Source: Candidatus Auribacterota bacterium (lineage in GTDB: Bacteria; Auribacterota; JAFGBW01). Taken from it: DNA of 42,261 nt. Below the pieces are notes generated by a model. It saw nothing but the letters and a program-made list of their open reading frames with translations. It did no database searches and was not told the origin of the DNA. Of the stretch, positions 1,274 to 41,914 are shown in pieces (position 1 is the stretch's first letter; every line of letters begins with the position of its first letter). Both the position numbers and the translations under genes were made by a program. The DNA lies in NCBI GenBank assembly GCA_016932965.1, contig JAFGBW010000138.1:1-42261 (forward strand), read 5' to 3'.

Positions 1274-2740
1274 TCATCCGGTTACATGATTTTTAAGTGC
1301 TGTTCCGGTTTTTCCCGATTCAAATTCATGAATATTGTCAACCGTTGTCTGGGCAATATTGTTCAAGGCCTCCGTGGTAAGAAAGGCCTGGTGACTTGTC
1401 ACGATGACGTTATTGAAAGTCAAAAGCCTGGCCAGCGTGTCATCGGATAACACCTTGTCAGAGACATCTTCAAAAAAGTAGGAGCCTTCCCCTTCGTACA
1501 CATCAAGCCCGGCATAGCCTATCTTCCCTGTTTTAAGGCCGTCAAGCAAAGCAGTTGTATCGATCAAAGCACCTCGGCTTGTATTAATCAGCATGACTCC
1601 TTTTTTCATTTTACTGATGGCAGCGGTATTGATCATATGTTTGTTTTCTGCAGTTAACGGGACATGGAGGGAAATGATGTCGGATTCCGCAAAAAGGGTG
1701 TCCAGATCTACGAAACGGGCGTTGAAATTCTTTTCAACAGACAGATCAGGAAACGGATCATAGACAAGAAGCCGGCATCCGAATCCGGCCAGAATACTGA
1801 GAGTGCACCTGCCGATTTTTCCTGCGCCTAAAATACCGGCGGTTTTTCCATGCACGTCAAATCCGACAAAACCGTTCAACGAGAAGTTCCCTTCCTTGAC
1901 GCGGTTATTGGCGCGATGGGTCCTCCTGTTCAATGTCATCATCAGGGCAACGGCATGTTCCGCAACCGCGAAAGGTGAATACGCAGGGACCCTGACCACT
2001 GAAACACCGCGTTTTTTACAGGCATTGAGATCGACGTTATTGAATCCGGCGCACCTCAATGCAATGAGATTGATTCCCATTGAATGGAGGTTGTCCAAGA
2101 CCTCGGCATCCACTCTATCATTAACAAATATACAGACCGCATTACATCCTGCAGCCAGAGAAACCGTATCAGGTGTCAATTTTGTTTCAAAGAAACGATA
2201 GGAATAATTATACGGATTGTTCCTCGTGAAGGTCTCCTCCATGTACGGTTTTGAATCAAAGAAGGCCACTTTGTAACGCCGGTCCAGGTCCTGCCCCAGC
2301 AGCTTTGCAACCATGTTCGTTTCCCTGTGGAGGCGGCTTGTGATGCTGGAAAGGATTCCTCTGGCGATAGAGCTATTGGCCTCCAAAAGCTCATTGAAAT
2401 TGGAATAATTCAATATCCAGGCAACAACCCGGGTACGAGCCTTTAAAGTGGCAGAACGAACCATTTCTCCAAAAAGTCCCATCTCCCCTGCTATGTCATT
2501 GGCCTTTAAAAGTGTAATTTCAATGAGATTTCCGTCCGCATGGGTTTTTAGCACACTGATTTCCCCGGACTCAATGATGAACATGCAGTCTCCTTTTTCA
2601 CCTTCAGAACAAAGAATGTCATCAGTTTTATATTCGGATTTTTTGAGTTTCCGCATGACCTGCTGAAGGGCATCCTCTGCAAGTTTCGAAAAGGCAGGGA
2701 CATGGCGCAAAACTTCAATTGAAATGGATGGTGAGCTCAT
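1274..2740 (-). CDS. Fusion protein: N-terminal cyclic-nucleotide-binding (CAP-effector-type) domain plus D-isomer-specific 2-hydroxyacid dehydrogenase (D-lactate dehydrogenase-like)
   Basis: The N-terminal ~130 aa carry the cNMP-binding signature FIIESGEISVLK...GEMGLFGEMVRSATLKARTRV. The rest matches LdhA-type D-2-hydroxyacid dehydrogenases: KVAFFDSKPY, LRCAGFNNVDL, VVRVPAYSPFAVAEHAV, the NAD fold GILGAGKIGR, and catalytic-His context VTSHQAFLT. A strong RBS (GGAAGGAG) lies upstream of the ATG at 2740. Confidence 0.85.
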   Translation of the reverse strand: MSSPSISIEVLRHVPAFSKLAEDALQQVMRKLKKSEYKTDDILCSEGEKGDCMFIIESGEISVLKTHADGNLIEITLLKANDIAGEMGLFGEMVRSATLKARTRVVAWILNYSNFNELLEANSSIARGILSSITSRLHRETNMVAKLLGQDLDRRYKVAFFDSKPYMEETFTRNNPYNYSYRFFETKLTPDTVSLAAGCNAVCIFVNDRVDAEVLDNLHSMGINLIALRCAGFNNVDLNACKKRGVSVVRVPAYSPFAVAEHAVALMMTLNRRTHRANNRVKEGNFSLNGFVGFDVHGKTAGILGAGKIGRCTLSILAGFGCRLLVYDPFPDLSVEKNFNARFVDLDTLFAESDIISLHVPLTAENKHMINTAAISKMKKGVMLINTSRGALIDTTALLDGLKTGKIGYAGLDVYEGEGSYFFEDVSDKVLSDDTLARLLTFNNVIVTSHQAFLTTEALNNIAQTTVDNIHEFESGKTGTALKNHVTG

Positions 2741-2761
2741 GATTATTCTCCTTCCTTATCA

Positions 2762-4237
2762 TTACATCAAGAATGCCCCAAAATAAATCAAAAGGCCGAG
2801 AACAGCCACATAAATCAAACAATATAAAAAAGTCTTTCGAAATATTTCATTCTGTCTGGATTCAATTCCCACGGTTGCCGCGGCCACTGAGATGCTCTGG
2901 GGGGAAATCATCTTACCGGCTGTGGCTCCTGCCGTATTGGAGGCGGTAATCCAGGAAGGATCATAACCCGTGGAAACAGCCGTTTGTTTCTGAAGCTCTC
3001 CCAGCAGAATATTGGATGATGTATCGCTTCCGGTTACAAACGTTCCCATTGCGCCAAGTAAGGGTGCAATGAGAGGAAAAAATGCTCCTGAAAAGGAAGC
3101 GATCATGACGGCGATCAAGGAGATCATTCCGGAGGCCCCCATCACCTTGGCAAGAATCAGAATGGAAATGATGGTGATGCATGTCCATTTGATTTTCTGA
3201 GCGGTTTTCCATATCAAAATTCGTATTTGATTCAAGGTAATACCCTGAATGAATCCCCCTGTCAGAGCGGAAAGGAAAAGAAGGGTGCCGGGAGTCGTCA
3301 GCCAATCGATCTTGACGGCATGTCCGTTTAAATGGATTTGAATGAGAAAGGGAGATTCGTTGAGAAAACAAATAGGTATCAGGCGGGTGACCAGAACCAG
3401 GAGCAATAAAATGGAAAAGGGAATGACTGCCATGATGATTTTTACAGAGATGAAATTTTCAGAACCGGGATGTTTCAAGCGCCGGAGGACAACATAAAAA
3501 ATGAGGGAGCCGATGGAGGCGGCGATGGCTACCAGTTCAGGACCTGCAGTGAATGCGACTGCGAGCTGAATGACTGAAAAAACCGCTCCTATTGACAACA
3601 CCTCCAGACAGGCTGAAAATCCTGGCCGTTTGTCTTTGTCTGCGAGAAACACAATGCCTAGAGGAACCAAAAGTGCAAATACGGCAAGCTGAACAGCAAC
3701 ATGATGTGTCAGAGTGTTTTGATCAAGACCGGTGACGTTAGCCAAAATGATAACAGGAATTCCAAGAGCTCCAAAAGCTACCGGTACAGAATTGGCCACA
3801 AGGCAGATCACAGCGGCCAGGACCGGTTCAAATCCGATGGAAATAAGCATGGCGGTGGGGATCGCCACGGCTGTTCCGAATCCTGCAACAGCCTCAAGAA
3901 ATCCCCCGAAACAAAAGGCGATCAGAACAGCCTGAATATTTAAATCAGGACACAAACGGATTAAAAAACTCTTGATTTCATCCATGGCGCCTGTTTCCAC
4001 ACTGATGAAATAAGTAAAAACAGCGGCAAAAATAACCCAGATAATGGGCACAATCGCTGTAATCAGACCCTCCATTGAAGATAACAGGATGGTCTTGAAT
4101 GACGTTTTCATGACGAAGAAAGCGATCATCTGTGTAATCAGCATCGTTCCAAATGTGGCAGTATGGGCTCTGATCCGGGTGAATCCCAGTGTATAGAGCA
4201 GAATCAAAAAAGGGCTTAAACTTACTAATTCTTTCAC
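2762..4237 (-). CDS. lctP: L-lactate permease (LctP family)
   Basis: Polytopic membrane protein with the LctP-family stretch FCFGGFLEAVAGFGTAVAIPTAMLISIGFEPVLAAVICLVANSVPVAFGALGIPV. GTG start at 4237. It ends 21 nt upstream of the cNMP-LDH gene on the same strand. Confidence 0.88.
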   Translation of the reverse strand: MKELVSLSPFLILLYTLGFTRIRAHTATFGTMLITQMIAFFVMKTSFKTILLSSMEGLITAIVPIIWVIFAAVFTYFISVETGAMDEIKSFLIRLCPDLNIQAVLIAFCFGGFLEAVAGFGTAVAIPTAMLISIGFEPVLAAVICLVANSVPVAFGALGIPVIILANVTGLDQNTLTHHVAVQLAVFALLVPLGIVFLADKDKRPGFSACLEVLSIGAVFSVIQLAVAFTAGPELVAIAASIGSLIFYVVLRRLKHPGSENFISVKIIMAVIPFSILLLLVLVTRLIPICFLNESPFLIQIHLNGHAVKIDWLTTPGTLLFLSALTGGFIQGITLNQIRILIWKTAQKIKWTCITIISILILAKVMGASGMISLIAVMIASFSGAFFPLIAPLLGAMGTFVTGSDTSSNILLGELQKQTAVSTGYDPSWITASNTAGATAGKMISPQSISVAAATVGIESRQNEIFRKTFLYCLIYVAVLGLLIYFGAFLM

Positions 4238-4307
4238 ATGACTATCTCCAGTTGATTTTTATCAAACTAGCAGATAGTATGGGACATGTAAAAACGAATC
4301 CACAGGG

Positions 4308-4802
4308 TTGTCCCTCTATAATGAACCGATATTAAAATGCTGTTCATTTGAATTGTCTTATGCTGCCGAACTTATACCTTTTCATTATGTTAAGTCTTTT
4401 CACCTGGAGCCTGGCCGGTATACGTTGTTTTTTGATCACGATGCCATTGCGTCCGGAATAGTGGCAATCGGACTTATTTTTATTGTCACCTCCATGACCC
4501 AGGGGTTCAAGAGACGGCCTTTCGCCATCAAAAAGCTCTGGTTGATCGTGATTCCTTGTTTTGTTGTCTTTTTTGCAGTCACCCTATTTTTCAGCGGCAG
4601 TCTCGGAGCACCGGAAACGGGTGATCTGCCTGTATTCGCCCTGCGTGAACACTATCTGTTCACAAAGGGAACTGAAGTGAGCCGACTGCGTTTCATCACT
4701 GTTGCCTCGAGTTTTTTAATTTGCTGGCATGGATTCATGATGGCATTTGTGATTGACCAATGGATGCATTTCAAAAATTCTGGGAAACATCTGCAAAAAT
4801 AA
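4308..4802 (+). CDS. Hypothetical small membrane protein (about 3 predicted TM helices)
   Basis: Only an ORF with hydrophobic segments (IVAIGLIFIVTS, LWLIVIPCFVVFFAVTLFF, FITVASSFLICWHGFMMAFVI). TTG start in the track, so the true start is uncertain. No recognisable motif. Confidence 0.4.
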   Translation: MSLYNEPILKCCSFELSYAAELIPFHYVKSFHLEPGRYTLFFDHDAIASGIVAIGLIFIVTSMTQGFKRRPFAIKKLWLIVIPCFVVFFAVTLFFSGSLGAPETGDLPVFALREHYLFTKGTEVSRLRFITVASSFLICWHGFMMAFVIDQWMHFKNSGKHLQK

Positions 4803-5072
4803 GTCTAGTTTTTCAACAGGTCTTCATACATTGTTCAATACGTCAAAATCAGGACAGGATCTGACAGATGCAAATCAGTTACAACAGCAACTTGTATCGT
4901 TCCTATGATAAAAACATTCACCAAGATTTTATCTCCCGAGATGAACCGGTCAATCATCTATCCAGGAATTTGTTCTGAGATTCATCATCCTGATGCTCCT
5001 TATCGAATAATTTAAGAAAGTAATGGAGATAAGATGTTCTATTTTATTTATTTGCAACAAGTTAAAAAAAAT

Positions 5073-5192
5073 GAAAAAAAGATAAAAAGCCTGAATTCCT
5101 TATTTCCATGTTGATTATCCACAAAAAAAATGGAAAAGAGATTATTGTTTCTCATTTATTACCATCATTCCCCTTTTTTTATCTTTTTTTTC
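5073..5192. repeat. AT-rich imperfect inverted repeat (GAAAAAAAGATAAAAAG at 5073-5089; its approximate complement CTTTTTTTATCTTTTTTTTC at 5173-5192)
   Basis: Read directly. The arms are homopolymer-rich, so the significance of the pairing is limited. Confidence 0.4.
5115..5123 (+). promoter_or_regulatory. Perfect consensus DnaA box TTATCCACA
   Basis: Exact 9-mer TTATCCACA at 5115-5123, in the AT-rich 500-bp intergenic region downstream of pcm and between the two inverted-repeat arms. I saw only one such box nearby. Confidence 0.3.
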
Positions 5193-5310
5193 TATTGATG
5201 GATCTGATAACTCGACATGGTGTTCTGCAGATTAACGGAATTTGAACATGCAAAACATTCAAAAATGATTCATCCTGATGAAGATTATCATAAAAAAACT
5301 ACTGTGAATT

Positions 5311-5949
5311 TTATTTGCCTTTCACCATGGGAACAAACCGAACTCCGATTGTCTCTTTGGTAATGACTCGGTGTTCCTGTTTTTCAAGGAGCAATAATTC
5401 CTGAGTCCATGTGCCGATCGGAATGACCATTTTCCCGCCTACAACCAATTGTTCCACTAACGAGGAAGGAATTTCTGCAGGAGCCGCCGTGACACAGATT
5501 TTTTCATATGGAGCATGTTCCTTCCATCCGGCGTGTCCGTCACAGCATCTGAAAAAAATATTGTGATAGCCGTATTCCTTCAATCTTTTTTCGGCAGAGG
5601 AAGCCAGTTCAGGAATGATTTCCATGGTAAATACCTCCTTTACGAGAGAAGCCAAAACGGCCGTCTGATAGCCTGCACCAGTCCCGATTTCCAACACCCT
5701 GTCATTTTTTGAAAGTTGAAGTAATTCCGTCATCAAAGCAACAATATAAGGCTGGGAAACCGTCTGACCGCATCCAATAGGAACGGGATAATCCTCATAA
5801 GCCTCCTCCAGGGATCCTTCTGGAATAAAAATATGCCGTTCAATTTTTAATAACGCTTCCAGGACTTTTTTATCTGAAATCCCCCTGGCTTGGATTTGTT
5901 GTTCCACCATCTCTTTTCTTTTTTCAGTCCACTTCTGCATAAAGCACAA
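5311..5949 (-). CDS. pcm: Protein-L-isoaspartate O-methyltransferase
   Basis: Motifs GQTVSQPYIVALMTELL, the SAM-binding VLEIGTGAGYQTAVLA, and GGKMVIPIG. The track start at 5949 is TTG. The in-frame ATG at 5940 (MQKWTEKRKEM) is the more likely start. Confidence 0.9.
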   Translation of the reverse strand: MCFMQKWTEKRKEMVEQQIQARGISDKKVLEALLKIERHIFIPEGSLEEAYEDYPVPIGCGQTVSQPYIVALMTELLQLSKNDRVLEIGTGAGYQTAVLASLVKEVFTMEIIPELASSAEKRLKEYGYHNIFFRCCDGHAGWKEHAPYEKICVTAAPAEIPSSLVEQLVVGGKMVIPIGTWTQELLLLEKQEHRVITKETIGVRFVPMVKGK

Positions 5950-8605: not shown

Positions 8606-8986
8606 ATGGATATTCTTGTTGTAGATGACGACACGATTTTACTCGAACTGATTACCCAACTTTTTGAACTTCATGGTCTTTCCTGTGAAACGGCAAAAGA
8701 CGGTTTTGAGGCACTCGAAAAAATAAAACAGCATTTTTATTCAATCGTTATTTCCGACATCAGAATGCCAAAATTAACCGGTACCGAACTTCTTCAGGAA
8801 ATACGAAATCTGCAGTCCGCATCCGAACATAAAACTAAAGTCATTCTCATGACGGCCTATTCAACTGCAGAGATCCAGGAAAAATCCATGACCCTGGGAG
8901 CAGATGAATTCATTATCAAACCATTTGATATCAAAGATTTTATGGATAAATTTTATCAAGTTGCTGGAAATAATCCGAATCATTAA
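8606..8986 (+). CDS. Single-domain response regulator (CheY-like receiver)
   Basis: Receiver residues are all present: acidic pair VVDDD, phospho-acceptor context IVISDIRMP, MTAY, and KPF. RBS AGGAGAGG lies upstream. There is no output domain. Confidence 0.9.
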   Translation: MDILVVDDDTILLELITQLFELHGLSCETAKDGFEALEKIKQHFYSIVISDIRMPKLTGTELLQEIRNLQSASEHKTKVILMTAYSTAEIQEKSMTLGADEFIIKPFDIKDFMDKFYQVAGNNPNH

Positions 8987-9062
8987 GACAAAACTGAACA
9001 ACGGATTTAAATCTTTTTACGCATCCTAACCGTGATGCTTTATTCCTCCTGAACTCCCTGGC

Positions 9063-12000
9063 TTATTTCATCTGTTTATTAAGCTCATCTAATCGTAGAG
9101 ATACCTTTTCAGGATTGACCCAGCCTAGACCATAAGACGAGAGGTCTATCAATAACTGTTTAAAGTCCTTATCATTCCAGTGCGCATGGTCCTGACGAAT
9201 CAAAGCGGATACTATTTGCTCCTTTGATAAATGTTGGTCCTTTTCCGGTTGAAATAAATAATCCGTATGATTGATTAAAAAAATCCTGAGTTGACTATCC
9301 AATTTTTTTTCAACCTCTTCTTCTTGACCTTCATTTACGGCAACAAATGACCAGTCTAATTCATATAATTGAAGCACCTTTGAATGAGCGGTCACTAAAA
9401 AACGTCCATCCTGGCTTAAATCCATAGCATAAAACGGTTCTTCACCCTGTTGGGCAAAAACGCATTGACCTGATTCGACACTCCAAAAACGCAATGTTTT
9501 ATCGGAGGAGGCGGATACGATGAATCTGCCGTCGGCTGTAAAACGAATGATATTCACGGATTCAGAATGATTATCAAAGACCTGCAGGCATCCCCCTGAT
9601 TCAACGTCCCAAACCCGAACGGTTTTGTCCGCCGATGAAGAAACGGCCAATGAACCATCCAGATTAAAAGACGCCATGTGAATGTAATCCGTATGTCCTC
9701 GGAAAGAACGAATAGATTTCCCCTGCCTGATATCCCACAGATACAATGCCGCATCCCACCCGCAGGATAATAAGAACCGGTTATCCGGACTAAAAACGAC
9801 TGAACTGACGTTATCAGTGTGTCCGGACAGATGAAGCAATTCCTGACCGGATAACCTATGCCATACCCTCAATATTCGGTCATAACCTGACGAAGCAACC
9901 AACATACCGTCATGACTAAACACGGCGAATGTGAAGCCCCCTGCATGAGAAATCCATTCCCGTATCATTTCCCCTTTATAAAAATCCCATAGACGCATGG
10001 TTTTATCCGTACTGCAGGATAAAAAATATCGCAGATCCTTCGTGATATCCACGGATATGATCTCCCCACTATGTCCGCTGCAGGTTGTTACACATTGTCC
10101 GGTTCCCGTATCCCAGATACAGATTTTTTTATCTAATGAACCCGAAATCACATATCGACCGTCTTTCACGATACGAACGACACTTATTTTATCCTGATGT
10201 CCTTCCCATTCAAAAAGCTTCCAGATGTGGTCCAGCAAAGCCCTGCGGGTTTTAAATCCCATTATCACACGGAGGCACAACGTCTCCATGTCTCTTTCAT
10301 AACCGGTAGAACGCCTGGCGTCCTCAATCAGACGCAAGGCTTCATCGAGCTTTCCTTCTTCCGAAAGAGATTTGGCATGATAAAGAGTATTCACAAATTT
10401 TGTCTGAGCCCGTTTAATGTGTTCGGGATCTATGGCAGGACAAAACACATAAGGAGCACGCATTTTCACAACAGAAGAACTGAAAAAAGAAAGGTCCCAT
10501 AATCTCATTGTATGATCGGGGCCTCCGGAAAGAATCATATTATTAGCCGGATTCCAGGCAACGCATGTCACTCTCTCCAAATGTCCCTCAAGAACCTGAA
10601 CACATTTCCCATTCAGGAGGTTCCATAACCTTATGGTTTTATCATTGCTTCCGGAAACACACCATTTATTGTCATGACTGACAGACACACAGTTTATCCG
10701 ATCCTCATGTCCGGTCAGAACCTGATAACGCTCTCCCTTTTCAATTTCCCATAATTGAATCTGTTGATCCCATCCTGCAACGGTGGCAGTCCTTTTGTCG
10801 GAGGTGACATCCATCGAATACACCCATGGGACAGATAAATTTATATCATGGACTATTTTCCCTGATTTCACATCCCATACATGAAATATCCCGTCCAAGC
10901 TTCCTGAACAACAATAAAAAAAGTCCTCATACAACTTGACATAAAGCACCCAATGTTTATGCCCGCTAAAAACCTTTAAATTTGTTCCGGTTTTTATCTC
11001 CCATAACCGAAGGGTCCTGTCCGCACTTCCTGAAAGAAGATATTGCATGTTCTTGCTTACACTCAGACAAAGAACAGGGCCTGAATGTCCTTTCAAAACT
11101 TGGACGCATTTACCGGAAGCCCAATCCCAGATACGGATGGTATGATCATAACTTCCTGTGACCGCATATGGACCGTGTATTAGTATGACGGAAATCTGAG
11201 CCTGATGCCCCTCCCATCTCATCGGAGCCTTGTCGGTAAAAAGATCCCAGACCATGAGTGATCCATCCATATTCCCGCTCAAGGCCTTCGTTCCATCAGG
11301 AAAAAAACACAAGGATTGAATCGAATCATTTCCAGTCTGATAGACAACAGCCGAACCGGATTTCCTTACTATTTGCTTTTCCAGAAAATGCAAAGCCTCC
11401 CGGATCTCTCTTCCTCCCCCCAAACGGACAGCGGCATGCAAATGATCTTTTGCCGCTTCCATTTCATTTTCTTCCATGCAAATCAGACCGAACAGATACT
11501 CTTTGATCCAGGGTTTAGATGCCGGCGCCAGCGTCGCTTCACTAACGTCGCTCATGAGTGCTGTCAGCGGGACATCCTTTGAGTAATAATGCAGCAATCC
11601 CATGTTATAAATTGTTTCAGGATGATGGGGATTGACTTTTAAAGATTCCTGAAAAAAATATTCCGCCTCCTTGATTTTACCCATATCAATCATGGAAAGA
11701 GCCCGATTGTTCAGCATATCGGATTTTGCCTGAATCCTGCCCGGCTGATTTCTCGGATAAGATTTATGAAATAATTTGATGTATATATCCCTCAGTTCTT
11801 TCACTACCTCCTCCATCGAATGAGGGCGTTCATCCGGATTAATCTTGAAACAACGTTTTAATAAACCGGCCAATAAATCCGGCATGGGAATAAGAAAAGA
11901 ATTGGATGCAAGTTTGATTTCAAGCACCTTGCCTGCCAAAGTGCCTGAAGGCCATTCAACACCACCAACAAACATTTCAAGAACCGTCACGGCCCAGCTC

Positions 12001-12698
12001 CAAAGGTCAGACCGGCGGGTCACTTTTTCCCTTCTGGACTGTTCAGGCGAACAATAAGAAGGGGTCATACCCCCGAATGTCGCCAGTACGCTTTTACCTT
12101 CTGATGAATCAATTCTATCAATATGGATCTTGGCTGCCCTGGTCAGACCGAAATCCGTCACTTTAGCCGTTCCTTCCGGAGTCATCAGAATATTTTCAGG
12201 TTTCATATCCTGATGAACGATCTGGTGCTGGTGAGCATGTAAAAGCCCCCAACCTGCTTGAATAGCAATATCAATGATTTTTTCCAGGGTGGCATCAGGA
12301 CTGGCCAGGTAAAGATTTTTCTTTTTATCATCATGACGGATCCAATCCTTCAGCGTCCCCCCTTCCAGATACTCAATGAAAATCCTTGGAATATTGTTGA
12401 TTTCACTGACATAGTAACAAGTGACCACATTGGAATGAAGGTCCAGATTGACCCACGTTTCTGCCTCTAGAATAAAACCCTTCTTAAAATCCGGATTCTC
12501 GAATATTTCCCATTTGGGAGTTTTCACAGCCAGAAAACGGTTCCAATTTCTATGCCAAACCTTGTAAACCTTTCCCATCCCCCCTTCACCAAGAATCTCC
12601 CTGACTTCATATAAATTTAAAACGACATCCCCCTTTCGCCATTCTGCATGCTGAATGACGCTAGGCCGGCTGTTTTCAACAAATGTTTCCTCTTTCAT
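9063..12698 (-). CDS. Ser/Thr protein kinase (non-RD) fused to TPR-like helical repeats and two 7-bladed WD40 beta-propellers
   Basis: Kinase motifs are GEGGMGKVYKV, LAVKTP, a VHQDMKPENIL catalytic loop (HQD instead of HRD, at 12207-12215), VTDFGLTRA and YCSPEQ. TPR-like region: ALSMIDMGKIKEAEYFFQESLKVNPHHPETIYNMGL. I counted 14 WD40 units ending in motifs such as SGSADRTLRLWEI, SGSNDKTIRLWNL, SSSADKTVRVWDV and SASSDKTLRFWSV. They fall into two groups of seven separated by a helical linker. Confidence 0.9.
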   Translation of the reverse strand: MKEETFVENSRPSVIQHAEWRKGDVVLNLYEVREILGEGGMGKVYKVWHRNWNRFLAVKTPKWEIFENPDFKKGFILEAETWVNLDLHSNVVTCYYVSEINNIPRIFIEYLEGGTLKDWIRHDDKKKNLYLASPDATLEKIIDIAIQAGWGLLHAHQHQIVHQDMKPENILMTPEGTAKVTDFGLTRAAKIHIDRIDSSEGKSVLATFGGMTPSYCSPEQSRREKVTRRSDLWSWAVTVLEMFVGGVEWPSGTLAGKVLEIKLASNSFLIPMPDLLAGLLKRCFKINPDERPHSMEEVVKELRDIYIKLFHKSYPRNQPGRIQAKSDMLNNRALSMIDMGKIKEAEYFFQESLKVNPHHPETIYNMGLLHYYSKDVPLTALMSDVSEATLAPASKPWIKEYLFGLICMEENEMEAAKDHLHAAVRLGGGREIREALHFLEKQIVRKSGSAVVYQTGNDSIQSLCFFPDGTKALSGNMDGSLMVWDLFTDKAPMRWEGHQAQISVILIHGPYAVTGSYDHTIRIWDWASGKCVQVLKGHSGPVLCLSVSKNMQYLLSGSADRTLRLWEIKTGTNLKVFSGHKHWVLYVKLYEDFFYCCSGSLDGIFHVWDVKSGKIVHDINLSVPWVYSMDVTSDKRTATVAGWDQQIQLWEIEKGERYQVLTGHEDRINCVSVSHDNKWCVSGSNDKTIRLWNLLNGKCVQVLEGHLERVTCVAWNPANNMILSGGPDHTMRLWDLSFFSSSVVKMRAPYVFCPAIDPEHIKRAQTKFVNTLYHAKSLSEEGKLDEALRLIEDARRSTGYERDMETLCLRVIMGFKTRRALLDHIWKLFEWEGHQDKISVVRIVKDGRYVISGSLDKKICIWDTGTGQCVTTCSGHSGEIISVDITKDLRYFLSCSTDKTMRLWDFYKGEMIREWISHAGGFTFAVFSHDGMLVASSGYDRILRVWHRLSGQELLHLSGHTDNVSSVVFSPDNRFLLSCGWDAALYLWDIRQGKSIRSFRGHTDYIHMASFNLDGSLAVSSSADKTVRVWDVESGGCLQVFDNHSESVNIIRFTADGRFIVSASSDKTLRFWSVESGQCVFAQQGEEPFYAMDLSQDGRFLVTAHSKVLQLYELDWSFVAVNEGQEEEVEKKLDSQLRIFLINHTDYLFQPEKDQHLSKEQIVSALIRQDHAHWNDKDFKQLLIDLSSYGLGWVNPEKVSLRLDELNKQMK

Positions 12699-13444
12699 TC
12701 ATCAATCGCCTTCAGTTTACCCTGAATGAGTTCGTGATATTTGATTCGGTCATCTTCAGAAATGGAAAGTATTTCCAGGCCTGCCTGAAATTGATTGCCC
12801 GGCAAATCCAATTTTTGAATCCACACAATCCGAGTTAGCATGGATAAAATATTATCAAACGTGTTGATTTTTAACTGGAGCCGGATATCAGGAGGGAAAT
12901 ATTTGGTCAAAAGGATCCTCAATCCTCCTTGAGAGATATCCACAAAGGTGATAAAAATCTTTTCACCTTCTATATCACACTCAGAATAAAAATCCGCATG
13001 AAACCGGGTAAACTGCCTGCGTTCAATGTTTCTATCTTCAGTCTGGACCAGTTTTCTTTTAACAGCAACTCCTTCCATCGAAACCCGCTGAACTGGCGAT
13101 TCCTTTTTTTTTGATAAATCAGGAATTTTCCCGGAAAAAGAATGAGCGTTTTCTTCCTCTATTTCCCGCTTTTTCCCCACTTCTTTTTTTGTCGTTTTTT
13201 TTACAGGAACACCGGCTCCTAACGCCTGAATAAAAGGGTCTATATCAAGACCCAGTATATACGCAATCCGCTTTAATTTTCCGACGGAAGGAAGAAGCAT
13301 GCCCTTTTCAACCATGTCGATGTAACGGACAGAAAGAGAGGTTTTCTTAGCCAAGTCATCCAATTTCATCTTTCTGGCCATCCTGGTTTCCATGATACAG
13401 AAACCGATTTCATCTGTCTTGATATCGGGAGAGGGTTCACTCAT
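12695..13444 (-). CDS. XRE-family helix-turn-helix domain fused to a C-terminal PilZ (c-di-GMP-binding) domain
   Basis: N-terminal HTH: MKLDDLAKKTSLSVRYIDMVEKGMLLPSVGKLKRIAYILGLD. A Lys/Glu-rich linker follows. The C-terminal PilZ domain has both canonical motifs, RxxxR (RRQFTRF) and DxSxxG (DISQGGLRI). Its stop overlaps the ATG of the downstream kinase (ATGA at 12695-12698). Confidence 0.8.
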   Translation of the reverse strand: MSEPSPDIKTDEIGFCIMETRMARKMKLDDLAKKTSLSVRYIDMVEKGMLLPSVGKLKRIAYILGLDIDPFIQALGAGVPVKKTTKKEVGKKREIEEENAHSFSGKIPDLSKKKESPVQRVSMEGVAVKRKLVQTEDRNIERRQFTRFHADFYSECDIEGEKIFITFVDISQGGLRILLTKYFPPDIRLQLKINTFDNILSMLTRIVWIQKLDLPGNQFQAGLEILSISEDDRIKYHELIQGKLKAIDE

Positions 13445-13705
13445 GATGGATCATCACCGGTCCTCAATAAAACAATACTATAGATAGGATAGATTATTCC
13501 ATGAAAAATCAAAAGTCAAAAAGCAAGTATCAAGCATTCAACTGCATGAAAAAAAACAGGATTGAACAGTTCGAATATTTTTTCAGTGAGCGTCTGCCGT
13601 TCAAACCAAATAATGTGAAAAGATTTTGTATTCTCTCTTCTGAATTCTGATTTCATTTCCAAAAAAGAAATGCCGAAAAAGTAGTATGAACGGACAGCCC
13701 TTATG

Positions 13706-15223
13706 TTAGAAAGCTTCCTCAAGCGCTTTTTTGAAATCCAAAGCAGAGGAAAAAGCACTCTCACCTGTATCCCTTAAAGCCGCATCAATCACCTTGGCTA
13801 AAGAAACAGGAACAGCCGGATTCCTCTTGAGTATGGACAATGGTTCGGTTTCAGCCACAACAAGAAAAGGATCCATATTTTCAGGGAAATCCCTCGGATA
13901 TGCTCCGCAAATCATGAAATACAGTGAGGCAGCTAAAGACCAAATGTCCGACTGGACAGAGGCATGTTTAAAATCTAAAAGTTGTTTTCTGGAAACAAAA
14001 GCCGGAGTTCCTGCGGATGATCCTGTTTTGGTGCAATTGCTGAGCCCGGCTTGATTCAAGGCTTTAGCCAGCCCAAAATCAGCGAGTTTGGCTATTCTAT
14101 TTGTCGTTGTTCCGCAAAGCAGAATATTGGACGGTTTTATGTCCCTGTGAACCAATCCGCGAACCTGGATAAGAGTCCCCTCATCAGAAGGATAATCGAA
14201 TTCAAACGTATGGCCATAATGAAGACCGTCCAAGGCCTGTGAAATAACTTGAACCGACTCCATGACAGGAAGAGAACCCGTATTTTCATTCATCCATTGC
14301 TGGACATCCCCCAAATTGCAATATTCCAAAGTAAAAAAAACATATCCTTCATAGCAGGTATGATCATATTGCCGAACAATATTGGGATGTTTTAAAAACT
14401 GAGTGATCCAGCATTCACGAATAAATCGTTTTCTGGATATTTCATCCGAACTGATATGGGGTTTCATCAATTTGAGTACTAACAATCGATCCTTTTCTCT
14501 TTTATGCTGAAGAAGAAAAATCACTCCCATTCCTCCTTCACCCAGAATTTTTTTAACGGTATATCCCTGGATTGAAGCAAGTGTTTTCTCGCCTGCCTCT
14601 TCTGTTAAAAACCTGGCTATCTGGACAGGATTATTCTGACAGGCAGGACAAACAGCTTTGTCTTCTTTTTTCACATGGATCCAGTAAGATAAATCCTTTC
14701 CGCAGTATCCGCAGGGTGAGTTAAAAAAATCCGCTTTTTCTGAAACAGACGAAGGAATTGAATCTACGAATGTTTGTACAAAAGCCTCGGATTTTTCCAG
14801 ATGTGCAGTGCCAGGATGATCCATTTCCCCAAAAAAGGAAAAAATATGAATTTCAAACAGGTTCTTGCCGACCCGAAACCTATCCCCGTCCTTTAAAACT
14901 GAATCCCTCTGAGTATGATTCCGGGCCGGACCATTTTTTAGATCAGACAAGGAGGCAATATTCATCTCATTGATCCAGGTTCCGTTGCTGCTGCCTAAGT
15001 CCCTTACATGAATTTTGGGAGGAACGATATCCAAAAGGCAATGGTGCCTGGAAACACCTTTATTTTCACTGGAATCTGGAAGGACTATCCGGCAATCTTC
15101 CGCACGACCGATCATGCAGATGACAGGTTCATTGAATTCAAACTCCTGTCCTGCCAAGGAGCCTTCCACGCTTTTGATGATCACTTTTGAATTCATAACA
15201 ATCAAAAATAATAAGGAATTCAT
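13706..15223 (-). CDS. FHA domain / CxxC...CxxC zinc-ribbon / Ser/Thr protein kinase (RD type)
   Basis: FHA: MIGRAEDCRIVLPD..VSRHHCLLD..VRDLGSSNGTWINE. Zinc ribbon: CGYCGKDL...CPACQ. Kinase: GEGGMGVIFLL, VLKLMKP, VHRDIKPSNILL, LADFGLAK, GTPAFVSRKQ. An alternative start ATG lies at 15196 (MNSKVIIKS). Confidence 0.9.
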   Translation of the reverse strand: MNSLLFLIVMNSKVIIKSVEGSLAGQEFEFNEPVICMIGRAEDCRIVLPDSSENKGVSRHHCLLDIVPPKIHVRDLGSSNGTWINEMNIASLSDLKNGPARNHTQRDSVLKDGDRFRVGKNLFEIHIFSFFGEMDHPGTAHLEKSEAFVQTFVDSIPSSVSEKADFFNSPCGYCGKDLSYWIHVKKEDKAVCPACQNNPVQIARFLTEEAGEKTLASIQGYTVKKILGEGGMGVIFLLQHKREKDRLLVLKLMKPHISSDEISRKRFIRECWITQFLKHPNIVRQYDHTCYEGYVFFTLEYCNLGDVQQWMNENTGSLPVMESVQVISQALDGLHYGHTFEFDYPSDEGTLIQVRGLVHRDIKPSNILLCGTTTNRIAKLADFGLAKALNQAGLSNCTKTGSSAGTPAFVSRKQLLDFKHASVQSDIWSLAASLYFMICGAYPRDFPENMDPFLVVAETEPLSILKRNPAVPVSLAKVIDAALRDTGESAFSSALDFKKALEEAF

Positions 15224-15274: not shown

Positions 15275-17926
15275 TTATATTTTTTCCTTCAAGGCTCGGT
15301 AGTCTGTTTTACCTGAGCCCAGTACTGGAATGGAGTCCAATTTAATGATACGGCGGATATGGTTAATCGGACCCAATCCTGACTGGCGGATCCATTCATT
15401 CACCTGGGCACGGTCCGCTTCCTTGACGGTAAAAAGGATCAGTTCAGGATGTTCTAAATCCGGTGACGCTTCAACGGCAATCACAGAACCTTCGTCTTTT
15501 TCGGAAGTAAAACGGGGAATCAATACCGACTCAATGGCTGGAAGAGAAATCATTTCCCCTCCCAATTTCACAAATCGATTCAGTCTTCCCTGAAAAAACA
15601 AAATACCCTCTTGATTTTGTCTGACTAAATCGCCAGTGCGGTACCATGCTTTATCACCCCATTCAACAAATGGGGAATCGCCCGTATAGTTCAAATAACC
15701 TTTGAAAATACTGGGCCCGCGCACCAGGAGCATTCCTGTTTCTCCCGGTTCAACTTCTTGATTTGAATCCATATCTAAAATAACAAATTCAATAGAGGAA
15801 AGAACGTGACCGATTGAATAGGAAACTGGATCAAGAAAATCATTCATAGAAACAACCGGAGAACATTCCGTAATCCCGTAACCTTCGACTATTTTCATGG
15901 CTGGACACAGAATCTTCAATGCTTGATACAGATGCTCAGGGCATTTCTCAGCCCCTGTTACAGCAAATTTCAAGGAACTCAATTGATCCTGTCTGGAAAC
16001 CCTCACAATACCCGAAAGAAAAGTAGGAGTACCGGCAAGGATGGTCGCTTTAAAATTATCAATGAGCCCAGCTAAAATAGCGGATTCCATTGGATTCGAA
16101 TGAAACACTGTTCGCAGTCCAAGACAAAGCGGTAAAATCAGAGTGACCGTCAGACCGAAAGAATGAAAAGGCGGCAGCATCCCCATCAAGACATCTGAAC
16201 GGTTGAATTTCCCCAGTTTAAGCATATCTCTGATATTGGTTAATATATTTTGATGGGACAACGGAACTGCTTTGGGCAGGCTTTCTGATCCGCTGGTAAA
16301 CAGGACTGCTGCCGTTTCAGGCACAACAGATGAGCGAAGATGAGAACATCTGGCCAGTTTGTATTGAAGAATGGCTCTGATTTTTTGTTTCCAGGTGATG
16401 GATCCGATCAAATCCTCAACAAAAATAAAACGATCCTGCAACGCTTCGAGACTAATTCCCTGTGAATTCAATTTAGTCACAAGTGATTTGGCTGTCAGAA
16501 CTTTTTTGACTCCAAGCAGATCGAGAGAATGGTTGAGGTTCCTGATTCCTGTAGTCCAATTAATCATGACCGGTATTTTTCCGCCAAACAGACAACTCAA
16601 ATAAAAGATAACACTTCCAACTGAGGCAGGGGTCATGAGGCCTATATAGCTTCCTTCTAATTTGCCTATGACAGGCGCCAAAATATTGATTCCTATAAGA
16701 ATTTCAGAAAATTTTTTTTCACCGGTAATGAGGTCAGAAAATATCATTTGACCGGGATTCTTCAGCGCTTTTTCCAAAAAGGCACTTGTGATGGTTTCTT
16801 CATCAGGCATATTCAATCGTTCCGTGGAAGTGACATCCTCAAACCATTTTTTAGCCGGCGTTTTGATATCGGCCTTCAGAACAGAAATGCCTTTTCCCGA
16901 GGCCGCAAGCAGTACATCCTGAACGGATTTCAATGCATCAGGTGTCCCCACGGAAAATCCGAATTCCTTTTCTATCCAGGAAACCAGTTCCGCGATGTTC
17001 AAACTGTCCAAACCGAGATCAGATGATAATTGATCTTGATCATCAAACTGTTTTTTTCCAGACATTCGTTCCAGTTCTTCGAACACAATCTGGCATGTGG
17101 CCTGGGGCACTTTTGTTACGTCTCCTTTCATGCAGAGACAGGTTGGTTCGGGCAGTTCCCTCATTGGTTCCTTTTCCCAAAAAAAATAGGACACATACGT
17201 ATTTTTCCATGCCCCGCTATTAAAATAATCTTCAATATAATGATTGACTTCCAAACGGTCCGCTCCCCTAGGAAAATCTGACGGCTCCAGAAACTCATAA
17301 AGTAATTTTCTCCGGGGCATGAAAAAAAAAGCGTTCAGCAACAGATATTGGAAGCCTTTGAATGCGCTTCGTCCGAATTTGGGTGCGGTCCGGTCAGGAT
17401 AATAACCGTAGCTGAAACTGCTTCCCCATAATCCATTTTGTCTGACTAGCACGATTCTTATTTCAGGGACTTCTTTGAGTATCGTTTCCACTGCGCTGGC
17501 GGCGCCAAGAGTTTCCAGAGAAGTGCGTTTGAGATGTCCGGCTGGATAAAGAAGCAGATTTTCTCCTTGTTTCAATCCTTCAATAGTCGTGGCGAGAATT
17601 TCTTTTGTGAAGCCGGCGACTCCTCCTCTTTCTAGATTAGGAAGCGTTCTGACTCCGTACCATCTGGCGAACGAACGGATCACAGGGCGGTTGATTTGAT
17701 ATTCATCCGCCAGGGTCCTGGGAACAAAATCAGCGTACAGATGACAAAACATCAGTACAGGGTCTATCAAGGCCGGATGATTGGAAAGGAACAGGATGCG
17801 TTTATTCCCCCGGGACAAAACGCTGTCTAATCCTATGATTTCCCAGTTATATCTTAATTGAAGAGACAGGCGCACCAGCCTGACAAGAAAATTTTTCAAT
17901 AAAAACAGAAATGATTTTTGGGGCAT
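15275..17926 (-). CDS. Tri-domain lipid-metabolism enzyme: PlsC-type acyltransferase, acyl-carrier (PP-binding) domain, and AMP-dependent acyl synthetase/ligase (Aas-like)
   Basis: Acyltransferase motif I is LSNHPALIDP (NHxxxxD), with LLLYPAGHLKR. The carrier domain has the phosphopantetheine serine context DLGLDSLNIAELVSWIEKEFG. Adenylation motifs are VLFTSGSESLPKAV, GYGITECSP, WYRTGDLV, VKLGGEMISL and LGSGKTDY. Confidence 0.85.
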   Translation of the reverse strand: MPQKSFLFLLKNFLVRLVRLSLQLRYNWEIIGLDSVLSRGNKRILFLSNHPALIDPVLMFCHLYADFVPRTLADEYQINRPVIRSFARWYGVRTLPNLERGGVAGFTKEILATTIEGLKQGENLLLYPAGHLKRTSLETLGAASAVETILKEVPEIRIVLVRQNGLWGSSFSYGYYPDRTAPKFGRSAFKGFQYLLLNAFFFMPRRKLLYEFLEPSDFPRGADRLEVNHYIEDYFNSGAWKNTYVSYFFWEKEPMRELPEPTCLCMKGDVTKVPQATCQIVFEELERMSGKKQFDDQDQLSSDLGLDSLNIAELVSWIEKEFGFSVGTPDALKSVQDVLLAASGKGISVLKADIKTPAKKWFEDVTSTERLNMPDEETITSAFLEKALKNPGQMIFSDLITGEKKFSEILIGINILAPVIGKLEGSYIGLMTPASVGSVIFYLSCLFGGKIPVMINWTTGIRNLNHSLDLLGVKKVLTAKSLVTKLNSQGISLEALQDRFIFVEDLIGSITWKQKIRAILQYKLARCSHLRSSVVPETAAVLFTSGSESLPKAVPLSHQNILTNIRDMLKLGKFNRSDVLMGMLPPFHSFGLTVTLILPLCLGLRTVFHSNPMESAILAGLIDNFKATILAGTPTFLSGIVRVSRQDQLSSLKFAVTGAEKCPEHLYQALKILCPAMKIVEGYGITECSPVVSMNDFLDPVSYSIGHVLSSIEFVILDMDSNQEVEPGETGMLLVRGPSIFKGYLNYTGDSPFVEWGDKAWYRTGDLVRQNQEGILFFQGRLNRFVKLGGEMISLPAIESVLIPRFTSEKDEGSVIAVEASPDLEHPELILFTVKEADRAQVNEWIRQSGLGPINHIRRIIKLDSIPVLGSGKTDYRALKEKI

Positions 17927-30084: not shown

Positions 30085-30104
30085 GCACCCTTAAATCCTC
30101 TCAT

Positions 30105-30178
30105 GGGTGATTAGCTCAGATGGATAGAGCGCTTGCTCGACACGCAAGAGGTCACTGGTTCGATTCCAGTATCGCCCA
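30105..30178 (+). tRNA. tRNA-Val (anticodon GAC); 74 nt, CCA not encoded
   Basis: Manual cloverleaf:
- Acceptor GGGTGAT/ATCGCCC plus discriminator A.
- D arm GCTC-AGATGGATA-GAGC.
- Anticodon arm CTTGC-TCGACAC-GCAAG.
- Variable loop AGGTC.
- T arm ACTGG-TTCGATT-CCAGT.
The acceptor stem and A73/A35/C36 fit valine identity. Position 33 reads C instead of the near-universal U. Confidence 0.85.
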
Positions 30179-30225
30179 TCTTGATACGGAAAAATATAAA
30201 TAACCATTCAATAAAGGAAAACAAT

Positions 30226-30747
30226 ATTAGTAATCTCAAGTTTAGAATCAATCGGGAAATCCCGGCCAAAGAAATCCGGGTCATCGCTGATGACGGACAA
30301 CAATTAGGCATCATCTCCAGAGATGAAGCTATTCGATTGGCAGAATCCAAACTCCTTGATCTGGTAGAAGTCAATCCCACCTCTGTCCCCCCTGTTTGCA
30401 GGATCATGGATTATGGCAAATTCAGATACAAGCAAACCAAAAAGGAAAAAGAAGCGAAAAAGAAGCAGCATGTGGTCAAAGTTAAAGAAATCAAATTAAG
30501 ACCGCAAATTGAAGAACATGATTATCTGGTCAAACTGGAAAGTGCTAAAAAATTTTTAACAAAAGGAAACAAGGTAAAAGTAACCCTGGTGTACAGGGGG
30601 AGAGAGCTGGCTCATAAAGAAATCGGAGAAGAGGTTCATAAAAAATTTTGCGCCGATATCGTTGAAACAAAACTGGGAGCCATAGAAAGCGAAGCAAAAA
30701 TGATCGGGAGGACTGTCCTGGTTGTTATAGGCCCTCTCAAACATTAA
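30226..30747 (+). CDS. infC: Translation initiation factor IF-3, probable ATT start codon
   Basis: IF-3 motifs: INREIPAKEIRVIADDGQQLGIISRDEAIRLAESKLLDLVEV, PPVCRIMDYGKFRY and KEIKLRPQIEEHDY. The track ORF (30133) starts inside the tRNA and is an artefact. ATT at 30226 sits 7 nt after AAGGAA and gives about 173 aa. Non-AUG (AUU) starts are the well-known autoregulatory feature of infC. Confidence 0.9.
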   Translation: MSNLKFRINREIPAKEIRVIADDGQQLGIISRDEAIRLAESKLLDLVEVNPTSVPPVCRIMDYGKFRYKQTKKEKEAKKKQHVVKVKEIKLRPQIEEHDYLVKLESAKKFLTKGNKVKVTLVYRGRELAHKEIGEEVHKKFCADIVETKLGAIESEAKMIGRTVLVVIGPLKH

Positions 30748-41407: not shown

Positions 41408-41914
41408 CTACTGCTTGAGAGGTTCATTGCTTTGTTTGAAACAAACTTCAACTGTAAAAGGGCCTAAGTCAGGAATCATGAATTTGATCACGATGATAAA
41501 CATTTTCGAGGAATGGGAAACATGATGATTTTCCCCGCAAATCACCGAAGGAAGGGAAAGACTGTAATGCAGACCAAGGGAATTGGTGATGCTCCCCTTG
41601 GCATGTCCTACGATCATGTTGCATATCTCCCCGACACCATCTCTAACCATCTGGTCATTAAGCGATTCTGGCTTTTCTCCGATCATGCATTCAATGATTT
41701 TCATGGCAACCTGGCCCGGAAAAGATATAGCCAGGCTTCCCGTGATATCACCGGCAAAACCGATGATCCCCGAAATGTCCCCAAAACAGCACTCATCCTT
41801 CTGTTTGATCCCAAGACCGGTCCTCTCAGGCCTGAGTTGTGTCGTGATCAATAAAACATCAATGGTTGAAAGGACGAAAGGATTAATAAAATTAACATCA
41901 ATTTGGGCAGCCAT
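41408..41914 (-). CDS. cheX: Chemotaxis phosphatase CheX (CheC/CheX family)
   Basis: CheX pattern: INPFVLSTIDVLLITTQL...GDISGIIGFAGDITGSLAISFPGQVAMKIIECMIGE...DGVGEICNMIVGHAKGSI...SLPSVICG. Confidence 0.8.
   Translation of the reverse strand: MAAQIDVNFINPFVLSTIDVLLITTQLRPERTGLGIKQKDECCFGDISGIIGFAGDITGSLAISFPGQVAMKIIECMIGEKPESLNDQMVRDGVGEICNMIVGHAKGSITNSLGLHYSLSLPSVICGENHHVSHSSKMFIIVIKFMIPDLGPFTVEVCFKQSNEPLKQ

Follow-up and report, generated by a model that had tools for sequence, protein, structure and literature searches.

Several elements of the locus described here have precedents among bacterial signalling systems: fusions of a Hanks-type Ser/Thr kinase (STK) to WD40 or TPR repeats, kinases carrying an FHA domain, and the general STK/FHA/PP2C logic are already known (PMC2176072, PMC11032199, PMC6213207). 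We analysed three consecutive minus-strand genes in a 42,261-nt stretch of DNA (hereafter the window; contig JAFGBW010000138.1 of a Candidatus Auribacterota bacterium), which encode, from 5' to 3', an FHA/Zn-ribbon kinase with an arginine-aspartate (RD) catalytic loop (gene 1), an HTH-PilZ protein (gene 2), and a large non-RD kinase with TPR and WD40 repeats (gene 3). A preliminary description, made from the letters alone, had known of no system with this exact gene set, and our database and literature searches agree. In the full-text literature, with subscription journals outside the scope, we found no description of the synteny between an FHA/ribbon RD kinase and a TPR/WD40 kinase with an HQD catalytic loop, none of an XRE-HTH/PilZ protein, and no paper that brings PilZ, FHA and a Ser/Thr kinase together.

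The kinase-kinase-phosphatase system (KKP; PfkA/PfkB/PfpC; PMC11341870) resembles the window in that two Hanks-type kinases are adjacent and one of them bears an FHA domain, and its PP2C component is paralleled in many relatives of the window module, but not in the window itself. Other characteristics differ. The FHA domain is C-terminal in KKP, whereas in the window it is N-terminal and followed by a Zn ribbon; the second KKP kinase, PfkA, carries a defining cold-shock domain, whereas the partner in the window is a 1211-aa non-RD WD40 kinase lacking such a domain. KKP genes measure about 1 kb (0.9-1.3 kb) and are ordered PP2C-kinase-kinase, in contrast to the window, with kinase genes of 1.5 and 3.6 kb and no PP2C, and the position of PP2C is variable among the relatives of the window module. 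Finally, more than 90% of KKP systems reside in prophages, mostly of Proteobacteria, whereas the context of the window is chromosomal.

With regards to gene 3, an N-terminal Hanks kinase followed by TPR and/or seven-bladed WD40 repeats defines a class that has long been known, comprising PkwA-type kinases, the cyanobacterial cbSTKII WD40(7) kinases (PMC2176072), the Planctomycetota expansions (PMC11032199), and the kinase/beta-propeller protein RqkA of Deinococcus (bioRxiv 10.1101/2020.04.06.028845). STK fusions of Scytonema, Ktedonobacter, Nocardia and Planctomycetota are even direct homologs of the gene 3 head. However, the corresponding papers treat these kinases singly, and we found in them no statement of an HQD subfamily or of synteny with an FHA/ribbon RD kinase; moreover, in Planctomycetota many of the repeats are predicted to be periplasmic, behind a transmembrane (TM) helix (PMC11032199), whereas gene 3 encodes no TM segment. 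The logic of writing, reading and erasing phosphothreonine (pThr) by kinase, FHA and PP2C, respectively, is shared with PpkA-PppA-Fha1 of the type VI secretion system (T6SS), with mycobacterial PknB-PstP-FhaA/B and PknF with the FHA-ABC transporter Rv1747, and with the Esr pathway of Actinomycetales (PMC13622651). In these systems the FHA domain sits on a separate substrate or adaptor and usually serves one kinase, whereas the window has it fused to one member of a kinase pair whose other member is non-RD; genes for T6SS, Esx, MoxR or vWA components are absent from the window. For gene 2, MrkH of Klebsiella likewise couples PilZ to DNA binding, but by a PilZN-like domain (PMC12564702) instead of an XRE HTH, and DgcB of Bdellovibrio (PMC6733907) sets a precedent for pThr signalling feeding into cyclic di-GMP (c-di-GMP), although there the FHA domain is on the cyclase.

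We favour, at a probability of roughly 0.6, the reading that the three genes constitute a lineage-specific version of a widespread, cross-phylum and apparently unnamed cytoplasmic two-kinase sensing cassette, which in this lineage would be coupled to a transcription factor that responds to c-di-GMP. With two loci in the public data searched, the local gene set is rare, whereas the broader two-kinase cassette is common and uncharacterised. The block comprises the following features, with domains called by Pfam against its gathering cut-offs and motifs read from the translations:

13706-15223, minus strand: gene 1, FHA/Zn-ribbon/RD Hanks-type Ser/Thr kinase; open reading frame (ORF) of 505 aa with Pfam FHA and Pkinase
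14930-15115, minus strand: FHA domain of gene 1, aa 37-98 (PF00498, E 3e-14, 53.6 bits against a cut-off of 20.7)
14639-14713, minus strand: CxxC...CxxC zinc ribbon of gene 1 (C171, C174, C192, C195), in the linker between FHA and kinase
13781-14563, minus strand: RD kinase catalytic domain of gene 1, aa 221-481 (PF00069, 4.6e-33; PF07714)
13445-13705, minus strand: intergenic gap between genes 1 and 2, 261 bp, AT-rich
12695-13444, minus strand: gene 2, HTH-PilZ protein of 249 aa with Pfam HTH_3 and PilZ
9063-12698, minus strand: gene 3, non-RD (HQD) kinase-TPR-double WD40 protein of 1211 aa with Pfam Pkinase and WD40/beta-propeller
11802-12611, minus strand: non-RD kinase domain of gene 3, aa 30-299 (PF00069, 3.2e-36, 125 bits against a cut-off of 31.7)
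11379-11726, minus strand: TPR/TPR-like helical region of gene 3, aa ~325-440 (TPR_2 at aa 329-359, 33.3 bits against a cut-off of 27)
10488-11336, minus strand: first WD40 propeller of gene 3, 7 blades, aa ~455-737 (Pfam WD40/beta-propeller)
9354-10223, minus strand: second WD40 propeller of gene 3, 7 blades, aa ~826-1115 (Pfam)

All three ORFs lie exactly where they had been placed, on the minus strand. The block had been called compact, which holds for genes 2 and 3, as the TGA of the former and the ATG of the latter share the ATGA at 12695-12698 and, by virtue of this overlap, the two genes are likely translationally coupled; it does not hold for genes 1 and 2, which are parted by the AT-rich gap.

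The same set of three genes is found again in the one close relative that we detected, a 6.3-kb contig from an independent ENA assembly (locus L002, carrying the HTH-PilZ protein P0002), where order and orientation are kept at 43-57% identity. Its FHA/ribbon/HRD kinase is 46% identical to gene 1, its HTH-PilZ protein 43-50% identical to gene 2, and its HQD kinase-TPR-WD40 protein 57% identical to gene 3 in the head and 38% in the propellers. The spacing is not kept, with gaps of ~130 and 157 bp in L002 versus 261 bp and an overlap in the window. Conservation of the order at such divergence is good evidence of functional linkage, and since the same three genes stand in the same order on an independent contig, the trio is not a product of chance; the notion that the three genes behave as a unit is supported by this comparison. 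The last gene of L002 is broken after 537 aa (at 4521-4606) and continues in another frame as a WD40 protein of 563 aa that is ended by the contig end; owing to the ~1x coverage on the twin contig, this break may be an assembly error or a frameshift.

Beyond the trio, both kinases belong to large families, unnamed so far and delimited here. Members of the FHA/Zn-ribbon/RD-kinase family, as we define it, share full-length homology (~500 aa) and combine an HRD kinase with an FHA domain at the N-terminus and one or more CxxC...CxxC ribbons, all of which gene 1 possesses. The family returned more than 3000 matches at E<=0.001, and the 120 matches listed are 36-63% identical over ~98% of the length, with Nitrospirota (Candidatus Magnetobacterium and relatives), Gemmataceae, Verrucomicrobiota and Deltaproteobacteria as named sources among them. 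The HQD (non-RD) kinase-TPR(-WD40) family is characterised by an HQD head, a TPR-like region and usually WD40 repeats, as is gene 3. Its head (aa 1-450) gave ~2000 matches at E<=0.001; those listed (120) are 38-52% identical, and their sources include Ktedonobacter, Scytonema, Nocardia, Protofrankia, Planctomycetota, Hydrogenedentes, Terriglobia and Candidatus Magnetoovum. As 113 of the top 120 matches carry HQD, the non-RD state is a family character and not a local oddity. WD40 repeats are fused to the head in some homologs and not in others.

The association between the two families was assessed in 22 contexts anchored on the FHA-kinase, namely the window, L002, five loci picked for closeness or contig size, L091 (picked on suspicion of sharing a contig with a partner match), and 14 JGI metagenome loci obtained from a pattern scan. 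An in-family kinase-TPR(-WD40) partner was adjacent or at most one gene away in nine of them (window, L002, L007, L011, L016, L017, L018, L022 and L091), and in three further contexts (L012, L092 and L095) another STK-WD40 protein was nearby, which in L095 belongs to a different, HRD-type STK-WD40 subfamily. PP2C was adjacent in 9/22 contexts (L005, L008, L009, L010, L011, L012, L015, L016 and L092). Within the unbiased metagenome subset (n=14, several on truncated contigs) the partner was found in five loci and PP2C in seven. The partner can precede or follow the FHA-kinase, and its WD40 protein is fused to it in some loci and separate in others; the gene order of the kinase pair varies among loci. 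Furthermore, both partner-anchored look-ups (2/2) recovered an FHA-kinase within ~2 kb: L093, with the order PP2C, FHA-STK, STK-WD40, STK-WD40, and L094, a Scytonema tolypothrichoides locus. The conserved core is thus an RD FHA-kinase plus a non-RD repeat-bearing kinase, usually accompanied by PP2C.

Some of these loci carry additional components. In L008 (2510-7732), FHA-STK and PP2C are followed by a 940-aa ABC transporter (ATPase and ABC-2 permease) with three FHA domains, an arrangement that recalls mycobacterial PknF/Rv1747. In L020 (6612-10525), the genes after FHA-STK encode a small non-RD (HLD) kinase and a leucine-rich-repeat (LRR) protein, an arrangement that looks like an LRR version of the theme of two kinases plus a repeat sensor, while a HEAT-repeat protein replaces the WD40 kinase in L092. 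STAND-type NTPases adjoin the kinase pair in L092 (3931-6705; AAA_16/nSTAND with Sel1/TPR repeats) and in the Scytonema locus L094 (3263-5818; NACHT). Transposase genes occur as well: an IS200-type Y1 transposase (8956-9597) lies between FHA-STK and its STK-WD40 neighbour in L095, and a DDE transposase fragment (281-556) beside the cassette in L093.

Genes 1 and 3 both show the hallmarks of Hanks-type kinases (PF00069), i.e. profile score, catalytic Lys, HxD loop with Asn, and DFG. The description of gene 1 as an RD kinase with an N-terminal FHA and a CxxC..CxxC ribbon is fully borne out by translation and Pfam. Its Pkinase match (aa 221-445) reaches 115 bits against a cut-off of 31.7, the catalytic motifs are K251, VHRDIKPSN (H359-R360-D361) and DFG (D382), and the activation loop, DFGLAKALNQAGLSNCTKTGSSAGTP, is Ser/Thr-rich and includes TKTGSSAGTP. 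The pThr-binding residues of the FHA domain are present (G39-R40, S58-R59-x-H61, N80-G81-T82) and, like the ribbon Cys, K251, HRD and the Asp of DFG, are invariant in an alignment of 14 family members (A2). The protein has no hydrophobic window or TM segment and is soluble; its closest solved structures are generic PknB/StkP kinases. Its translation probably starts at M10 (nt 15196, 496 aa), as homologs and a 496-aa database gene model start there. FHA domains bind pThr, and given that the binding residues are kept, it is plausible that the FHA of gene 1 reads phosphosites written by the partner kinase, as had been suggested. The number of ribbons varies within the FHA-STK family: most members have two, those of the window, P0004, L002 and L091 have one, having lost the first (upstream) of the two, and those of L018 and L094 have none.

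Gene 3 had been portrayed as a 1211-aa non-RD kinase with TPR repeats and 14 WD40 blades. Kinase, length and seven plus seven blades are all confirmed, but only one TPR repeat is significant in Pfam; the TPR region is ~60% identical to that of L002, and homologs carry TPR Pfam families. The catalytic residues of the kinase are intact, with GEGGMG, K59 (LAVK), VHQDMKPEN (HQD, non-RD) and DFG. Blade-end motifs, ~42 aa apart in both propellers, are found at aa 481, 521, 563, 605, 647, 689 and 731 of the first and at aa 859, 901, 943, 985, 1027, 1069 and 1109 of the second, which is preceded by a second helical segment (aa 738-825) and followed by a C-terminal tail of 96 aa lacking a Pfam match. 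Gene 3 encodes no TM or hydrophobic segment and its product is soluble; hydrophobic segments are missing from all three proteins, which places the propellers in the cytoplasm.

Gene 2 is an XRE-HTH/PilZ protein, as first proposed, both domains exceeding the Pfam cut-offs (HTH_3, PF01381, 30.8 bits versus 23; PilZ, PF07238, 44 bits versus 22.5). An XRE HTH (aa ~10-75) is joined to the PilZ domain (154-240) by a disordered linker of ~75 aa (78-153), in which Thr84/Thr85 and several Ser are found; the protein lacks a TM segment. In the AlphaFold2 model, confidence values (pLDDT) are 75-93 for the five helices of the HTH, 70-86 for the PilZ barrel, and below 35 for the linker. Foldseek related the HTH to SinR, DdrO, C-proteins (C.BclI) and HipB at a root-mean-square deviation of 1-2.5 A, and the PilZ domain to PA4608, but the structure search revealed no solved structure that combines XRE HTH and PilZ. 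The RxxxR (R143-R147) and DxSxxG (D169, S171, G174) motifs are kept in all four family members. In PilZ domains, RxxxR and D/NxSxxG motifs bind c-di-GMP, and gene 2 is predicted, from its motifs and model, to be a c-di-GMP-responsive DNA-binding protein.

Relatives of this protein are scarce. A word-indexed search of 5.8 billion proteins yielded one homolog, P0002 (43%), and an exhaustive HMMER profile search, run over 1.84 billion representatives, gave four clusters with E<1e-30 (window, P0002, P0250 and P0251). Scanning GTDB genome contigs with HTH-PilZ gave only one spurious 29-residue match, and the first metagenome scan with the HTH-PilZ alignment gave nothing. The lineage is poorly sampled, as L20 and RNase Y of the window have no cluster mates at 90% identity, and a census of close relatives is not feasible at this sparse sampling. 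The HTH-PilZ gene is located between the two kinases only in the window lineage, i.e. in the window and L002. A search of all fetched loci with the PilZ profile detected PilZ only in the window, L002 and L091, and PilZ was discarded as a general component of the cassette. In L091, a PilZ protein of another architecture (PilZN-PilZ; RTDLR and DISEGG both intact) is encoded directly upstream of FHA-STK and STK-WD40. The shared loss of the first ribbon in the window, L002, L091 and P0004 hints that PilZ linkage may characterise the single-ribbon branch of the FHA-kinases. Immediately upstream of PilZN-PilZ in L091 lies a gene for a 1521-aa Cache/GAF/PAS hybrid histidine kinase with receiver (1328-5893), which suggests a further signalling input at that locus.

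A number of observations weigh against a conserved cassette wired to gene 2. About half of the FHA-kinase loci lack the partner, and while some of the partner-less contigs are truncated, L005, L013 and L015 are not. The closest FHA-kinase homolog, P0004 (63%), lies on a 5.6-kb contig without PilZ or an identifiable WD40-kinase neighbour. Across 10 paired loci, the two kinases showed no co-divergence in a mirror-tree test (r = 0.07, Mantel p = 0.34) and thus no sign of strict co-inheritance, implying that the pairing may be reshuffled among paralogs instead of forming a fixed couple. In the window, the 261-bp gap between genes 1 and 2 means that the trio may not be co-transcribed as a whole, and the lack of PP2C means that there is no local candidate for a reset. 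Moreover, the distant HTH-PilZ relatives P0250, which adjoins COX15/UbiA genes, and P0251, on a 1-kb contig, are without kinase neighbours, which rules out a constant association of HTH-PilZ with kinases.

Known domain behaviour allows a mechanism to be inferred for the cassette. RD kinases generally need activation-loop phosphorylation, whereas non-RD kinases generally act without it. In the large kinase, the TPR/double-propeller platform would bind a cytoplasmic protein or ligand and thereby gate the kinase domain, and this non-RD kinase, as the likely initiator, would phosphorylate Thr residues on itself or on its partner without requiring an activation-loop phosphate. The FHA domain of the small kinase could then dock on these pThr residues and so recruit the RD kinase for phosphorylation of its Ser/Thr-rich activation loop (TKTGSSAGTP). 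Once activated, the RD kinase would phosphorylate outputs, of which the HTH-PilZ protein is the most plausible local one, encoded as it is by the gene wedged in the middle of the trio; the disordered linker of this protein, which contains T84, T85 and a number of Ser, would be a typical kinase/FHA target. By combining its phosphorylation state with c-di-GMP binding at PilZ, the HTH-PilZ protein might set the transcription of its targets, while in relatives elsewhere PP2C would reset the system.

Hanks-type WD40/TPR kinases are abundant in cyanobacteria, Planctomycetota, Ktedonobacteria, actinomycetes and Nitrospirota, and for almost none of them is an input, partner or output known. The recurrent pairing of the HQD subfamily with an FHA/Zn-ribbon RD kinase, often with PP2C, offers a testable wiring for thousands of such orphan kinases, namely which kinase acts on which and what is read by the FHA domain. 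In addition, the insertion of HTH-PilZ and the PilZN-PilZ protein of L091 point to a direct link of c-di-GMP with Ser/Thr phosphorylation. Taken further, the FHA/ribbon RD kinase and the HQD non-RD TPR/WD40 kinase, with or without PP2C, could represent an unrecognised, ancient and widespread class of cytoplasmic two-kinase sensors, in which a pseudo-receptor is paired with an executor, perhaps for threat sensing like KKP or STAND, and which is coupled to c-di-GMP via PilZ in the single-ribbon branch. We put this extension forward tentatively and consider it somewhat doubtful; if true, HTH-PilZ would be the first known case of a transcription factor that responds jointly to Ser/Thr phosphorylation and c-di-GMP.

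The main rival explanation, which we regard as unlikely but still live, would make the cassette a conflict or anti-phage (threat-sensing) system akin to the kinase-kinase-phosphatase type, in which WD40/TPR repeats would recognise an invader, the kinases would hyper-phosphorylate host or phage targets and cause growth arrest, and PP2C would act as antidote or reset, the window copy being a variant with HTH-PilZ output. KKP, with its two Ser/Thr kinases, one of them bearing FHA, and a PP2C, has been shown experimentally to be a toxin-antitoxin/defence system (PMC11341870), and PP2C adjoins the FHA-kinase in 9/22 related contexts. Repeat sensors fused to kinases, swapped sensor modules (LRR in L020, HEAT in L092) and tandem paralogs (two STK-WD40 genes in L093; P0141, P0151 and P0183, for which the same 19,998-bp contig size is listed) are features typical of diversifying immune sensors. 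Several loci also have STAND/NACHT NTPases, HicAB or transposases as neighbours. However, the hallmarks of KKP, i.e. cold-shock-domain kinase, C-terminal FHA, ~1-kb genes, PP2C-kinase-kinase order and prophage location, are lacking, and the window is ordinary chromosome (recA, infC-rplT-pheST, RNase Y), devoid of mobile-element genes and of PP2C. The XRE-HTH/PilZ protein also points to housekeeping second-messenger regulation. While the best PADLOC matches are kinases of defence systems, PADLOC-DB 2.0 contained no full-length defence match, the similarity to PD-T4-6, mad6 and Stk2 being confined to the generic kinase domain, and the NCBIfam models MAD6, PglW and Stk1 stayed far below their cut-offs (e.g. 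124 versus 460). Any specific identity derived from PADLOC, NCBIfam or PDB sequence searches was thus rejected as generic kinase-domain similarity. No STAND, MoxR AAA+ or GTPase core NTPase, as found in ternary conflict systems (PMC7159879), is encoded in or beside the block; STAND/NACHT genes flank two distant relatives, L092 and L094.

The preliminary description had assigned the block to its neighbourhood, as a dedicated regulator of an envelope module. Its immediate neighbours are:

15275-17926, minus strand: Aas-like acyltransferase/PP-binding/AMP-ligase (Pfam), upstream of gene 1; linkage not conserved
8606-8986, plus strand: stand-alone CheY-like receiver (Response_reg, PF00072 only, E 1.4e-28)

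That the trio is co-transcribed with, and regulates, the adjacent acyltransferase/ligase and the LamG/496-aa/YD genes is in our view quite improbable. The same-strand genes upstream encode an Aas-like acyltransferase/ACP/AMP-ligase (with PRK08633/PRK08043-like NCBIfam matches below the cut-offs), an RHS/YD protein, a 496-aa protein lacking a Pfam match, and a triple-LamG protein. The block does lie directly downstream of, and co-directional with, the acyltransferase/ligase gene, without a predicted terminator in between, and the gap is 51 bp, as first stated, if the longest ORF of gene 1 is taken, but 78 bp if translation starts at M10. Consistent with export, the YD, 496-aa and LamG proteins have hydrophobic N-termini, and c-di-GMP effectors commonly control surface structures. 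However, relatives of the Aas-like, YD, 496-aa, LamG and Wzy-TPR proteins were absent from all fetched loci except L004, a fragment of the window itself (tblastn, E<=1e-5), a negative that covers the other 21 FHA-kinase contexts with DNA; the Pfam tables of later-fetched loci contained none either. The expected co-occurrence of the signalling genes with LamG/YD genes was consequently not seen, and the proposed link is unsupported, same-strand adjacency in one genome being what remains of it. In L002, the gene upstream of the trio is instead divergent and of the flavodiiron type (N-terminus YWVGAIDW...FHGY...GTTYNAF), and the kinase pair as such occurs in many unrelated neighbourhoods. Thus, the adjacent envelope genes are neighbours and not demonstrated targets, and the analysis removes a tempting but unsupported annotation as regulator of the envelope operon.

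That three functionally unrelated signalling genes became adjacent by chance in a signalling-rich genome is hardly credible. In favour of this reading, genomes encoding such kinases often hold dozens of them (PMC11032199), the mirror-tree test lacks co-divergence, and genes 1 and 2 are 261 bp apart. Against it, the trio keeps its order at 43-57% identity, the same two kinase families are repeatedly adjacent in varied orders, in loci named Cyanobacteria or from independent metagenomes, and the ATGA overlap couples genes 2 and 3 translationally.

We return to the two-kinase cassette in its genomic setting. The window represents ordinary chromosome of an uncultured sediment bacterium (a genome from a sediment metagenome) and contains recA, genes for lactate permease, PCMT, an AIR-synthase-like protein and tRNA-Val, infC-rplT-pheS-pheT, and the RNase Y gene; no phage, integrase or mobile-element genes were found in it, nor, by tblastn and Pfam, a PP2C phosphatase anywhere in the 42 kb. 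The 261-bp gap between genes 1 and 2 is a possible internal promoter or operator region. Inverted repeats within it are weak and not common to L002, RNA folding gave no significant hairpin or terminator (z = -1.1), and a scan found no consensus promoter; over all relevant gaps, scans for consensus promoters and terminators and RNA folds gave nothing above background. Three metatranscriptomes of the same study lacked the sequence, with zero RNA coverage of the window contig. The CheY-like receiver does converge on the 3' end of gene 3, as had been noted from the sequence, and is separated from it by 76 bp; no equivalent neighbour exists in the other loci, and we treat it as a neighbour of the module. 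Besides this receiver (8606-8986, plus strand), the window encodes a CheX-type CheY-P phosphatase (41408-41914, minus strand); neither has genes for a histidine kinase or for chemotaxis in its vicinity.

Two ORFs of exactly 496 aa (21631-23121, minus strand, and 38201-39691, plus strand) have no match in Pfam, NCBIfam or PADLOC; the former sits between the LamG and YD genes. They were considered as paralogs, which was rejected as direct comparison showed them to be mutually unrelated. At the other end of the window, a fusion of a cyclic-nucleotide (cNMP)-binding domain with a D-2-hydroxyacid dehydrogenase (488 aa) is encoded directly downstream of L-lactate permease (1274-2740 and 2762-4237, both minus strand), which would be an unusual, cyclic-nucleotide-sensing fusion. 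Finally, the infC ORF as called (TTG at 30133; 30133-30747) starts inside tRNA-Val(GAC) (30104-30180), so that translation must in fact begin downstream of this point; as infC usually has a non-canonical start codon, it probably uses one here too.

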